DNA of 32,000 nt from Candidatus Baldrarchaeota archaeon (GTDB lineage: Archaea > Asgardarchaeota > Baldrarchaeia > Baldrarchaeales > DXJG01): assembly GCA_019056805.1 (NCBI GenBank), contig DXJG01000009.1:239473-271472 (forward strand). The letters are read 5' to 3'. Of the stretch, positions 23,389 through 26,969 are shown in pieces (position 1 is the first letter of the stretch; the number at the start of each line of letters is the position of its first letter). A program made the position numbers and the translations under genes. The notes beneath the pieces are model-generated. The model saw only the letters and a list, made by a program, of their open reading frames with translations. It was not told the DNA's origin and did not search any database.

Positions 23389-23679
23389 TTGGCACAAACA
23401 AAAAGAGAAGAGAACGTGATATTAGTAGGTAAAAAACCCCCAATGAACTATGTTCTAGCAGTTGTAATGCAATTCAATAGCGGGGCAAACGAAGTAGTAA
23501 TAAAGGCGAGAGGAAGAGCCATAAGTAAAGCCGTTGATGTAGCGGAAATCGTTAGACAAAGATTCCTACCTGAAATGGTAGAAGTAAAAGACGTAAAAAT
23601 CGGGAGTGAAGAAGTAGGAGAAGAACAAAATAAAAGAACAGTATCGACAATAGATATAACCTTAAGAAGAGTAAGTTAA
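23389..23679 (+). CDS. albA: Chromatin protein Alba
   Basis: [39 protein letters not shown]; TTG start with GGAGGTG SD. Confidence 0.97.
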
Positions 23680-23971
23680 AACTACTTTTACCTAGTATCT
23701 TTTTAATATCTCCATATACTTTCATCCTTTTATTTTATAATGCTAATATTCAATTAGAACAATCTTCAGCATTGAATCAAAAGAAAATACAATTTAGATT
23801 TAACAAGCATCAAATTAAAATATTAAATTAATCTTTTAAATGAAACAACAACACTTCTTTCCCTTTTAAACTGTTATTTTTTACCGTGCAAGAACAAATT
23901 TACTGCATAATAACAAAATATTTTTACACTTTAAAACAAATATATTTACAGGCTAATTTGCGGAGGGATTA

Positions 23972-24133
23972 ATAGCGAAGAAAGACCTTATTTTAATTGA
24001 ACGAAAAGAGTCAGATGGCACTTCCTGCGGAAATTGCGGTTACCCCTTAACTGTAGAGGTATACTGGAAAGCTGGAAAAATAATTAAACGAATATTTTGT
24101 GAAAACTGTGGAATGGAAGCATGGAGAACGTAA
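23972..24133 (+). CDS. Unannotated small zinc-ribbon protein (53 aa; probable ATA start)
   Basis: (M)AKKDLILIERKESDGTSCGNCGYPLTVEVYWKAGKIIKRIFCENCGMEAWRT*, with two CxxCG knuckles. In-frame TAA at 23954; GGAGGG SD at 23962-67; no ATG/GTG/TTG before the first knuckle. Confidence 0.7.
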   Translation: MAKKDLILIERKESDGTSCGNCGYPLTVEVYWKAGKIIKRIFCENCGMEAWRT

Positions 24134-24312
24134 AAGTTTTTCTCAGGCATTTCTTCGCAACTTTTTCCAGATTTTACAAAAAACTAGAACCAGACGCATA
24201 TATTTTTAAAATCGATAGCAACGGAATATTAAAAGAAGAATTTAAAGACTGTAGCCTCCAGAGAATAGGGGTTTTTAAGCGATATCTTAAAAAGGTTTTC
24301 CTTTTAAAGTAA
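24121..24312 (+). CDS. Possible small hypothetical protein
   Basis: 63-codon ORF overlapping the Zn-ribbon ORF end; no recognisable motif. Confidence 0.25.
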   Translation: MENVKVFLRHFFATFSRFYKKLEPDAYIFKIDSNGILKEEFKDCSLQRIGVFKRYLKKVFLLK

Positions 24313-24368
24313 GGTGATTTTACAAATGTTACTTAATGTCAAAATTTGATAGAATGGAGGAATCATAG

Positions 24369-24923
24369 ATGAGTGACGAGAAAATATATTACCGTGTGGA
24401 GAATATAGTGGCTAGCGTGGTTCTGGAGGACAGAATAGATCTGGAAAAAGTAGCTAACGCCTATCATAATGTCGAATACGATCCAGAACAATTCCCAGGA
24501 CTAGTATTCAGACTTCAAAACCCTAAAGCCGCGGTTCTCGTATTTAACACAGGAAAAATGGTTGTGACAGGATTAAAAAGAGAAGAAGAAGCAGAAGTAG
24601 TAGTCAACAAAGTAATAGAGAAAATAAGAAAAGCAGGAGTACCGATTAAAAGCAAACCACAAATACAAATACAAAACATAGTTTCTTCAGGAAGCATAGG
24701 CGCCGAAATTGATCTTGAATTAGCTTCAATAACCCTCGACGACTCCCTTTACGAACCAGAACAATTCCCAGGGTTAATATATAGAATGAAAGATCCAAAT
24801 GTAGTTTTCCTACTTTTCAGCAGCGGCAAAATAGTATGTACAGGCGCCAAAAAGGAGACAGATGTTGCAAGAGCAGTAAAGAAGCTTGCAAAAGAACTAA
24901 GAGAACTGGGTCTAGTCACCTAA
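24369..24923 (+). CDS. tbp: TATA-box binding protein
   Basis: Two direct repeats: ENIVAS...YDPEQFPGLVFRLQNPKAAVLVFNTGKMVVTG and QNIVSS...YEPEQFPGLIYRMKDPNVVFLLFSSGKIVCTGAK. Confidence 0.98.
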   Translation: MSDEKIYYRVENIVASVVLEDRIDLEKVANAYHNVEYDPEQFPGLVFRLQNPKAAVLVFNTGKMVVTGLKREEEAEVVVNKVIEKIRKAGVPIKSKPQIQIQNIVSSGSIGAEIDLELASITLDDSLYEPEQFPGLIYRMKDPNVVFLLFSSGKIVCTGAKKETDVARAVKKLAKELRELGLVT

Positions 24924-25026
24924 CGCGACATAAGTCAACTTTACCTTTTTATATTCAATTAAACTTAATTTAACATTAGACTAAGACTTGAATTTTAGTC
25001 AAACTTATTAGTTGGGGGAAAGATAA

Positions 25027-25611
25027 CTGAAATTTAAATGCTTAATGTGTGGTGAATGTTGCCGAGATAAAAAAATGATCGTAACAATCACCCATATCGA
25101 CATAAGTAGAATAGCTTCCCATCTAAATCTGGATGCTCAAGGCATCTTAAAACACGTAGCATTTTACCAAGTAGTAGGAAGAGGTTATGAAAAACTCGTA
25201 ACACCCCCTGTTACAACAACAAGAGGCATAGCTTATCTAGGCCTTTTAAAACTACAAGATGGTTCTTGCATTTTTCTCTCAAAAGATAATAAATGTTCTA
25301 TATATCCTGCTAGACCTTCTTCATGCCGCAACTTTCCTTTTACTTTTCAGTTGAAAAACAGATGGCTATATCAAGGTATATCGGTAAGAGCAAAGGAATA
25401 TTGTAAAGGTCTCGGAAAGGGTAGAAAAATAAGTGAAAAGGAATTAGAGAAGCAAGGCATTAAAACAATTAAAGAACTTAAGGAATATGAAAATCTAGTC
25501 TCAAAATGGAACGACCTAGCATTAAAAGGACAAATAAACCCTACCCCACAACTATTTATCGAATATTTACTTTCAAGAGGATTTCTAAACCTAAGCTTTT
25601 CTTTTCTTTAA
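25027..25611 (+). CDS. YkgJ-family cysteine-cluster protein (probable CTG start)
   Basis: (M)KFKCLMCGECC...CIFL...KCSIYPARPSSCRNFPF...C.GLG. The first Cys of CxxCGxCC lies upstream of the ORF-track ATG 25045; CTG 25027 follows an in-frame TAA and a GGGGG SD. Confidence 0.85.
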   Translation: MKFKCLMCGECCRDKKMIVTITHIDISRIASHLNLDAQGILKHVAFYQVVGRGYEKLVTPPVTTTRGIAYLGLLKLQDGSCIFLSKDNKCSIYPARPSSCRNFPFTFQLKNRWLYQGISVRAKEYCKGLGKGRKISEKELEKQGIKTIKELKEYENLVSKWNDLALKGQINPTPQLFIEYLLSRGFLNLSFSFL

Positions 25612-25778
25612 TAATTATTTTGAACTCCTAAGTATTGTTTCAAAACAACTTAAAGGATACTTTGAAAATCCTATTTTTTTAAAATCAAATTGTAGAAATT
25701 ATAAGAAGATAATAAACATGGAAAAACGTAATTTTATATGTAATGTACACATCTGCTTTGAATTTTCAAACGGTTGTG

Positions 25779-25790
25779 TTGGCGCCCCGC
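25779..25790 (+). promoter_or_regulatory. Candidate E2F-type site TTGGCGCCCCGC upstream of the E2F-like gene
   Basis: GC-rich GGCGCC core in an AT-rich intergenic region, about 40 nt downstream of a TTTTATAT TATA-like box (25732-39). Confidence 0.3.
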
Positions 25791-25909
25791 ACATACCGAA
25801 ATTTGAAGTGAAACATTACAATTAGTTGAATAATCACATTAAACCAAAAAATATATGTGTATCGGAGAGGTATACAAAAGTAATATCTCATTATTGTGGG
25901 GGGTACCAC

Positions 25910-26434
25910 GTGCGTCTTATGGAGATGACGAAGCGTGCTGTCGAGATTCTCCAGAAAGCCGGTGAACAAGGCTGTCTGAACATAGAATTAGCGTGGAAAC
26001 TCGGCGTGTCAAGAAGAAGAATATATGATATTATCGCTGTACTGAGGGCAGTGGATTTAATAAAAACAGTCAAAGAAAGAAGAGGAACAAGAATAATATG
26101 GAAAACGCCACTGCATTTCCAAGAGGAAAAGGAAAGACTTCTCCAAGAATATAGAAAATTAAAGAAAGAAAAATATTCTCTTGAAAAACAAATTACAATA
26201 TTAGAAGAACAGCTTGAAGCCTTAAAAGAAAAGAAAGTTGTACAAATATCTGAAACTGTAAAATTTAACGTAAGAAAAATAAGAATAAAGAGCGAATCTG
26301 GTTTTTTGAGAATTTCAGGTAGAGGTATGGAAGCCATAGTAGAATCTTCAAGCCCTGGCATAATCGTTCAACCCTTACCCATCTACATTCCAGTTAACTC
26401 AACAAAACCGATGGAAAAAACTAAGGAAAGATAA
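25910..26434 (+). CDS. E2F/DP-family winged-helix transcription factor-like protein with coiled coil
   Basis: L...TKR..E.L........L....A..L.V..RRIYDI..VL....LI.......I.W matches the E2F DNA-binding domain pattern, followed by a heptad coiled coil and a beta-rich tail. Likely GTG start at 25910 (GGGGGG SD); the ORF track starts at TTG 25826. Confidence 0.85.
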   Translation: MRLMEMTKRAVEILQKAGEQGCLNIELAWKLGVSRRRIYDIIAVLRAVDLIKTVKERRGTRIIWKTPLHFQEEKERLLQEYRKLKKEKYSLEKQITILEEQLEALKEKKVVQISETVKFNVRKIRIKSESGFLRISGRGMEAIVESSSPGIIVQPLPIYIPVNSTKPMEKTKER

Positions 26435-26561
26435 CCAAAAATCGCGATAATAATCCACTAACACCAAAATTAGCTTTTCTAAAAGTAGTATTAAAACATA
26501 TCATATTCTTGACGCAAAGAGAAAGTATTTTTTTGGATGTAACCAGTTTGAAAGACAACCG

Positions 26562-26969
26562 TTATTCTTCTAATTTTAAAACTTTCACAATTTCCCCTCT
26601 TTTAATTTCTCTAAGTACATCTAAGTTATCGATAACTTTACCCACTACATTCACTTCTGAATACGGCTCAATTTTCTCATAAAAAATACATAATGCATCT
26701 CCCATCGGCCAATACGCTATATCCCCAGGTTCAATATTCTTTGTTGCTTTTTCTTTACCCATATTTATTCCAACATTAAAATATATTTCTCCAGGATTAT
26801 CTGGAGGCCATATCAGAACTCTAGCAGTTAATGGAAGTTTCATTAAAAGTTTCTCCACAGTCCTAGGTGCCTTTATCCTTACAAGTTCACCTAAAACTTC
26901 TTTCCCACTTTCAAAAACAAACTTAACCTTAAACCTACTAAGTTCACTCATTTCTTTCACCAAATCCAT
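26562..26969 (-). CDS. Cyclophilin-like fold protein (DUF369-type)
   Basis: APRTVEKL..KLPL....IW..EIYF, PGDIAYWP.GDALCIFY, VNVVGKV. Confidence 0.8.
   Translation of the reverse strand: MDLVKEMSELSRFKVKFVFESGKEVLGELVRIKAPRTVEKLLMKLPLTARVLIWPPDNPGEIYFNVGINMGKEKATKNIEPGDIAYWPMGDALCIFYEKIEPYSEVNVVGKVIDNLDVLREIKRGEIVKVLKLEE

Follow-up and report, generated by a model that had tools for sequence, protein, structure and literature searches.

Does the interval between alba and tbp in this Baldrarchaeia genome hold a gene, and if so, at which codon does its translation begin? In the window, the 32,000-nucleotide stretch of DNA analysed here, alba lies upstream at 23389..23679 (+; Pfam Alba PF01918, E 3e-26), and tbp, a downstream neighbour in Baldrarchaeia only, follows at 24369..24923 (+; PF00352, E 1.6e-60, and synteny). 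Between them, the window sequence and its translation contain a stop-free frame of 58 codons from stop to stop (23957..24133, +) that is closed upstream by an in-frame TAA (23954..23956, +). The frame encodes the motif CGNCG-x20-CENCG, in which 20 residues separate two zinc knuckles, and ATG, GTG and TTG are absent between the TAA and the first cysteine. The ORF is unlisted when an ATG, GTG or TTG start is demanded and is listed only without a start-codon requirement. A Shine-Dalgarno-like GGAGGG (23962..23967, +) stands near the beginning of the frame, with 5 nt between the 3′ end of its GGAGG and an ATA triplet (23972..23974, +) that alignment with Baldrarchaeia relatives marks as the putative near-cognate initiation codon. 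Counted from this ATA, the CDS (23972..24133, +, including the stop TAA at 24131-24133) would encode a 53-aa zinc-ribbon protein. Its first knuckle, C19-G-N-C22, is at 24026..24037 (+) and its second, C43-E-N-C46, is at 24098..24109 (+); the cysteines of both are invariant in 20 family members.

A sequence-only reading of the window had predicted a hidden small gene at this site from the cysteine motif, the GGAGGG, the upstream TAA and the lack of a canonical start before the cysteines. All four features are present, and the prediction is borne out by orthologues and purifying selection. A six-frame search of 40 related genomes, supplemented with five contigs from metagenomes, recovered the same small frame in two genomes of the same genus (82-85% identity) and more distant versions (35-48% identity) in many families of the phylum. 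Orthologues in sister genomes and metagenome contigs are 82-90% identical and occupy the same slot between alba and tbp; Odinarchaeia and Atabeyarchaeia are among the sources of the distant homologues. The homologue search that the earlier reading had called for thus finds the gene in sister genomes and across Asgard archaea, with the four cysteines invariant across 20 members from ~9 Asgard families. The zinc ribbon of Csl4 in G013 was a false match to the family and was discarded. Comparison of the window with the other sequences gives 21-24 synonymous and 10-14 non-synonymous differences (omega 0.03-0.06, with dS saturated), and conservation sets in at the SD/start region and ends exactly at the ribbon stop codon. 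These results identify 23972-24133 as a real protein-coding gene under strong purifying selection. In one sister genome (G001), a TnpB/IS200-605-type ORF (L003:2118-2918) follows the ribbon gene in the place of tbp, and synteny is broken there by the mobile element.

The flanks of the gene contain candidate transcription signals. An A/T-rich, promoter-like block, ..AACAAAATATTTTTA.. (23910..23926, +), lies ~46 nt 5′ of the start codon and is a BRE/TATA candidate. It is the only conserved block upstream of the SD in the eight Baldrarchaeia sequences compared, and the stretch between the two is variable and contains indels; we infer that the block is a promoter. A T5 run (24137..24141, +) lies 3 nt past the ribbon stop and is a candidate archaeal oligo-T terminator; L009 and L010 also have a T-run ≤30 nt past the stop, and a terminator function is likewise a reasonable reading. 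In the best overall explanation, which we consider probable as a whole, the gene is monocistronic and functional. A 63-aa ATG ORF (orf63, 24121-24312, +) overlaps the end of the ribbon gene and is probably spurious, having no homologue even in sister genomes and lying in unconserved DNA.

The position of the start was examined by alignment of the 10 Baldrarchaeia sequences. At the position of ATA 23972, seven of them have GTG (L002, L003, L011-L015), and ATA recurs in L009 and L010, which are two independent metagenome contigs. The GG(A/G)GGG is invariant in all 10 and its flanks vary; in 10/10 the string GG(A/G)GGG-AT(T/C)A precedes the ATA or GTG codon. In L003 and L015, a 2-nt deletion upstream places a TGA in frame five codons before the GTG, which is the only possible canonical start in these two sequences, and in L010 an extra, frame-breaking G is present upstream of the ribbon start. 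An upstream ATG was considered as the start and discarded, since only L009 and L013 keep it in frame: L010, L003 and L015 have it in another frame, in L002, L011 and L012 it is mutated, and in the window the TAA cuts it off. The start is therefore fixed at the ATA/GTG codon, because the frame-breaking indels bar upstream ATGs as a shared start. The 53-aa form with the GTG start is annotated by NCBI and JGI as 'hypothetical protein' in Baldrarchaeia MAGs. In a related protein, P0003, the start seems to be four codons further upstream, and Thr occupies the position of the ATA.

The sequence-only reading had named ATA 23972 as the most plausible start, and the alignment agrees, with a GTG at this position in one clade and ATA in two independent contigs. 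The codon is thus polymorphic between ATA and GTG within the genus. The same reading had expected canonical starts in homologues to signal a sequencing error or a recent mutation. A canonical GTG is indeed found in one clade, yet ATA recurs in L009 and L010 at dS ~1.5 and dN/dS ~0.06, which favours a true ATA start. Between the window and L009 there are 21 synonymous and 10 non-synonymous changes (dS ~1.5, omega 0.06), and across its comparisons with L009 and L010 the window shows dS 1.5-1.8 and omega 0.05-0.06; the three ATA carriers are thus not closely related. On the unrooted tree of the three clades, one switch between ATA and GTG is enough, and ATA was therefore kept along the whole path from the window to L009 and L010 with the protein under selection. 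Retention of ATA over so long a path in effect excludes a sequencing error, and a pseudogene that has only recently lost its start becomes very unlikely. The designation of ATA 23972 as the initiation codon is strongly supported by these comparisons, and the codon appears to be a long-maintained start as opposed to an error or a recent loss.

Three other accounts of the ATA were weighed against this one. The genome is a MAG (18 contigs, 91% complete), and an error in sequencing or assembly might mask a canonical start; two base changes would be needed to turn GTG into ATA, however, and the same ATA is found in contigs from two other metagenomes, so that this account is extremely unlikely. The GTG at the same codon in sister genomes, together with the poor performance of ATA as a start in model bacteria, could instead mean that a GTG start was lost and translation ceased. 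Such a pseudogene is very improbable, since the ATA is common to three independent assemblies dS ~1.5 apart with omega ~0.06, the ATA carriers have neither frameshifts nor stops, and L009 and L010 are separated by five synonymous changes and none that alters the protein (p ~4e-4 under neutrality); essential genes of the same genome also start at ATA.

The third account accepts a real gene and moves its start to TTA 23969, to ATT 23990 or 23996, or to reinitiation after a mini-ORF of four codons (TTG 23958..TAA 23972) whose stop overlaps the ATA by one base. The short SD spacing to the ATA speaks for it, as does the canonical start of the Odinarchaeia and family f8 homologues, which aligns with the Leu of 'LILIE' and yields a shorter protein that still comprises the whole fold; the TAATA or TAGTG overlap of the reinitiation version is visible in the sequences. 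The individual codons do not hold up across relatives. TTA 23969, which the earlier reading had offered as an alternative, is not conserved and is TCA in L009, the position of ATT 23990 is GTT in L002, and no SD precedes the TTA or ATT alternatives. The mini-ORF has no counterpart in L002, where that frame contains a TGA, or in L009, and the uORF/reinitiation version was rejected because the mini-ORF is not conserved. Only the ATA/GTG codon is start-like in 10/10 sequences, and a start elsewhere in the frame is quite unlikely.

Initiation at ATA 23972 has consequences for expression that depend on the ribosome-binding site. The 16S rRNA was not found in the assembly, and the SD was judged by the genome's own GGAGG spacing statistics. 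Among 319 canonical starts led by GGAGG in this genome, spacing peaks at 7-8 nt (107 and 83 starts), and 14 have the 5-nt spacing of the ribbon gene. The strong SD of the sequence-only reading is therefore real and conserved, and its strength is tempered by a spacing of 5 nt that is not ideal against the genome mode of 7-8 nt. By this measure the ribosome-binding site is conserved but sub-optimal, and so is that of the GTG alleles. In the proposed mechanism, the conserved GGAGGG, 5 nt away, would direct translation to start at the near-cognate ATA, where the initiator tRNA presumably brings in Met. A codon this weak, together with so short an SD spacing, would be expected to hold ribbon output down, and low or regulated expression of the gene is what this arrangement may imply. 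In its entirety the best explanation, a functional gene with an ATA start that encodes a zinc-ribbon adaptor, is one we regard as likely.

Near-cognate starts are also found in other genes of this genome. The aIF1/SUI1 gene (G000:C9:206258; L090:1429-1737, +) has no ATG, GTG or TTG in its whole 122-codon frame, and AGGAGG-9 nt-ATA stands just before its N-terminal CxxC; the same arrangement is found in G001, G003 and G004, which extends it to another family of the order, and the Odinarchaeia gene (G005) has an ATG start. A truA-like pseudouridine synthase gene (G000:C9:46546; L057:147-980, +) opens with ATA immediately behind a TAA, and GGAGG lies 8 nt before the ATA. A stretch of 128 codons lacks any canonical start, yet it already includes the RTD..VHA catalytic motif; sister genomes keep the ATA and have in addition an in-frame GTG three codons upstream. 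An RPA-like OB-fold gene (G000:C17:59302; L058:153-761, +) has GGAGGT-7 nt-ATT just past an in-frame stop, the stop-AAY-ATT behind GGAGGT is kept in G001 and G003, and the first canonical start lies inside the OB fold. Within the window, the ykgJ-type Cys-rich gene, a conserved downstream neighbour of the ribbon gene (25027..25611, +), has a putative CTG start that abuts an in-frame TAA, and GGGGG lies 8 nt before the CTG. Stop-CTG-(K/R)FKC is found in 5/5 Baldrarchaeia sequences, distant (f8) homologues have their TTG start at the position of the CTG, and a protein begun at ATG 25045 would lose its first conserved Cys.

Further candidates for near-cognate starts are a PfkB kinase (ATT, G000:C9:418089), a Hel308-like helicase (ATT, G000:C9:62103), an MBL hydrolase (ATA, G000:C18:75727; the matches in relatives are paralogues only), a 376-aa ORF (CTG, G000:C15:69059) and a thioredoxin-fold protein (CTG, G000:C9:464737). 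For PfkB and MBL, the boundaries of the Pfam domain speak for the near-cognate start. A genome-wide count was restricted to ORFs of ≥150 codons with the first canonical start ≥5 codons away, a filter set after the data had been seen. Under this filter, ATA, ATT, ATC or CTG accounts for 10/27 first codons preceded by an SD versus 341/3343 without one (OR 5.2, p 2e-4), a result that is indicative only, given the post hoc choice of ORF filter. Looser genome-wide tests gave no ATA enrichment behind SD motifs. ARAGORN found 11-18 tRNAs in the genome, an incomplete set. On the strength of the individual genes, near-cognate initiation appears to be a working feature of this lineage, and the ribbon ATA fits it. 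These genes could form a Baldrarchaeia 'low-fidelity regulon', in which aIF1 is itself translated from ATA, the ribbon, ykgJ, truA, RPA-like and other genes use ATA, ATT or CTG, and their output would rise when aIF1 is scarce. The ribbon protein would then partner either Alba or the E2F-like/TBP module, in a dosage-sensitive way, within a conserved Asgard chromatin-transcription cluster. This scheme is speculative, and we consider it rather doubtful.

The ribbon and aIF1 genes of this genome share the codon ATA, its placement by an SD and its conservation in relatives. They differ in that aIF1 has a 9-nt spacing and an ATA fixed across the order, whereas the ribbon gene has a 5-nt spacing and alternates between ATA and GTG within the genus. 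Bacterial parallels exist. The AUU start of E. coli infC is a conserved near-cognate start used to throttle or autoregulate translation. In S. aureus, infC, ccpN and citZ have AUA starts with strong SDs that attenuate translation (bioRxiv 10.1101/2025.06.19.660503). The AUA of the ribbon gene resembles those of infC, ccpN and citZ in that it is placed by an SD, conserved in relatives and alternates with canonical codons in sister lineages. It differs in belonging to an archaeal (Asgard) small zinc-ribbon gene known from sequence alone, for which the fidelity factor would be aIF1 and not IF3. One source (PMC6237735) cites Sulfolobus aIF1 as a factor that discriminates against non-canonical starts, and ribosome profiling of Haloferax classed ~30% of putative alternative initiation sites as near-cognate and set them aside (PMC7261190).

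Gene callers that accept only ATG, GTG and TTG miss the ribbon gene; several further genes of this Asgard lineage are overlooked by them or given a wrong start, and Baldrarchaeia proteomes and gene-content comparisons are therefore incomplete. We know of little documentation of natural, conserved AUA, AUU or CUG initiation in archaea. A ribbon gene that looks non-essential and switches between GTG and ATA within one genus under strong selection is a natural experiment on start-codon strength, and the switch occurs in a lineage whose aIF1 gene also begins at ATA.

The fold of the ribbon protein was predicted with AF2 from a 20-sequence alignment (pLDDT 94). The model is a four-stranded antiparallel sheet (strands 7-18, 25-33, 36-43 and 49-52) with the CxxC knuckles at hairpin turns. 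Strands 25-33 and 36-43 cover LTVEVYW and IIKRIF, the two segments that the earlier reading had taken for β-strands. The protein is thus predicted to be a compact four-stranded β-meander that would hold one Zn through its two CxxC knuckles. The combination of four invariant cysteines (C19, C22, C43 and C46) in 20 sequences with an antiparallel β fold is that of a generic zinc ribbon. Its net charge is only ~+2, and the protein's sequence does not point to nucleic-acid binding.

No Pfam or NCBIfam model reaches threshold for any of the 20 ribbon members. A profile search of 1.84 billion representative proteins matched only ~45 small proteins, and the named members are without exception Asgard 'hypothetical protein' entries (Baldr-, Odin-, Borr-, Njord- and Jordarchaea and Asgardarchaeum); a few members have automatic IMG labels such as RpoP (two members). 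The surmise that the family is undescribed is in line with these searches. The gene is single-copy in 59/201 Asgard genomes and is distributed over 11/27 families with presence and absence clean by family; it was not found in three large Asgard families (0/43, 0/41 and 0/19). Within the scope of these searches, the ribbon appears to be an unnamed, Asgard-only, single-copy zinc-ribbon family. What seems new here is this family, its evolutionarily maintained ATA start, its conserved Asgard neighbourhood and the ATA start of truA. Longer versions of the protein in f8 and f18 (L024, L025, L026 and L027) contain a linker of low complexity, and their conserved C-terminal tail ends in RLV(R/K)(S/Q)W; the short forms end in E.W, a pattern suggestive of a conserved contact motif that includes Trp. 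The search for fusions gave nothing informative, and none to neighbourhood partners: P0063 was rejected as a response-regulator fusion with a marginal E, and P0072 as an unrelated purH that is seemingly mis-clustered.

The relationship of the family to known zinc ribbons was examined by sequence and structure comparison. Elf1 (PF05129) has the same C-x2-C-x20-C-x2-C spacing. The ribbon scores 13.6 bits against Pfam Elf1, where the cut-off is 29.8 and the genome's true Elf1 scores 82.4 bits, and sub-threshold Pfam Elf1 matches were obtained for 5/20 ribbon members. Alignment of the family with 15 Asgard Elf1 sequences by hhalign gave a probability of 79% (E 1.5e-5 over 38 columns), Elf1 being the only zinc-ribbon family so compared. 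In Foldseek searches of the PDB no match had E ≤ 0.001; Elf1 chains gave the best TM and rmsd (TM 0.62, 2.0 Å over 45 residues) at E 2-3, which is not significant. The ribbon resembles Elf1 in its four-Cys ribbon, the identical spacing and the β-strand before the first knuckle. It differs in falling below the Pfam cut-off and in lacking both the basic N-terminal tail (GRRKRRK..) and the C-terminal EPVDxYxxFxD helix, which are absent in 20/20 ribbon members and present in the 15 Asgard Elf1 sequences. This genome also has a true Elf1 gene at another locus, as do most Asgard genomes with the ribbon. Judged from these comparisons, the Elf1 ribbon core appears to be the closest known relative, and the ribbon is not an Elf1 orthologue.

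A paralogue of Elf1 is a separate matter. Such a protein would be a minimal cofactor of elongation or initiation, docked on RNA polymerase, and not a partner of Alba. The Cys spacing, the hhalign probability, the Foldseek TM and the sub-threshold Pfam matches all lean towards it, and TBP or TFB is adjacent to the ribbon gene in two lineages. The Foldseek E values are not significant, however, the hhalign figure comes from a comparison with Elf1 only, the N-tail and the EPVDxY..F.D helix are missing, and a true Elf1 co-occurs in the same genomes; an Elf1 paralogue is accordingly unlikely.

Other relatives were also considered. Foldseek E values against TFIIS are 0.24-0.6, and the TFIIS/TFS C-terminal ribbon was rejected: the β2-β3 turn of the family is WKAGK, without the DE motif of the acidic hairpin (..SADE..). 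RpoP/Rpo12 was rejected as well, the family profile matching PDB RpoP chains at E 0.67-1.5 through one knuckle only and no member matching an RpoP model in Pfam or NCBIfam. The fold comparison with transcription-protein ribbons that the sequence-only reading had recommended therefore yields a weak ribbon similarity to Elf1 and TFIIS, and the features specific to Elf1, TFIIS and RpoP are absent. The best PDB sequence match to the family profile is 6zxw_H (E 0.014), a chain that we take to be a Trm112-like zinc knuckle. HVO_2753 and HVO_0758 of Haloferax gave marginal matches (E 0.002-0.003) to 1-2 of the 20 members. Like the ribbon, these two proteins have ~55-60 aa and two CxxC knuckles and are often missed or unnamed; unlike it, they have another taxonomic range and no shared gene context. 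The VIA wide comparison gave Z 5-6.5 to β-propeller blades, below the meaningful range, and the ESM Atlas returned only generic small zinc ribbons.

The gene neighbourhood provides the main clue to a role. The alba gene is directly upstream of the ribbon gene on the same strand in six Asgard families, with gaps of 14-26 nt in family f8 and ~72 nt in f20 that suggest co-transcription of the pair in these two families. The ykgJ gene follows on the same strand in five families and lies 1 kb downstream in the window, and an E2F-like gene comes after the ribbon in three. A cyclophilin-like (PF04126) gene is the most widely conserved neighbour, found near the ribbon in seven families and mostly convergent or divergent; the copy in the window (26580..26930, −) is the only such gene of the genome and lies 2.4 kb downstream of the ribbon. 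In Odinarchaeia the upstream neighbour is TFB, and in Baldrarchaeia TBP is inserted after the ribbon. The link to alba is missing in four families (Odinarchaeia, f6, f15 and f27) and in most f5 genomes, and several neighbours are convergent or divergent and not operonic.

The association of the ribbon with chromatin and transcription genes thus appears recurrent across deep Asgard lineages, as an association only. From this conserved neighbourhood, the ribbon protein may be a small adaptor that acts with Alba, chromatin or the transcription machinery. A chromatin or transcription role, drawn from gene context only, is a tentative proposal that we hold at somewhat less than even. The idea of a transcription-associated factor put forward in the sequence-only reading remains a reasonable conjecture from gene context and the weak Elf1/TFIIS ribbon similarity. 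For the archaea most closely related to eukaryotes, the recurrent neighbourhood supplies a concrete set of candidate partners of Alba and of the E2F-like factor.

Across Asgard archaea the recurrent order is alba > Zn ribbon > ykgJ > E2F-like < cyclophilin-like (window 23389-26930; L024-L027, L043-L046, L052 and L053). It is most complete in f18 and f20, and TBP (Baldrarchaeia) or TFB (Odinarchaeia) is added in single lineages. A 115-aa ORF with no Pfam match lies between the ribbon and the cyclophilin-like gene in Odinarchaeia (L008:1710-2054); its counterpart in the f20 cluster (L045:585-917) is 46% identical.
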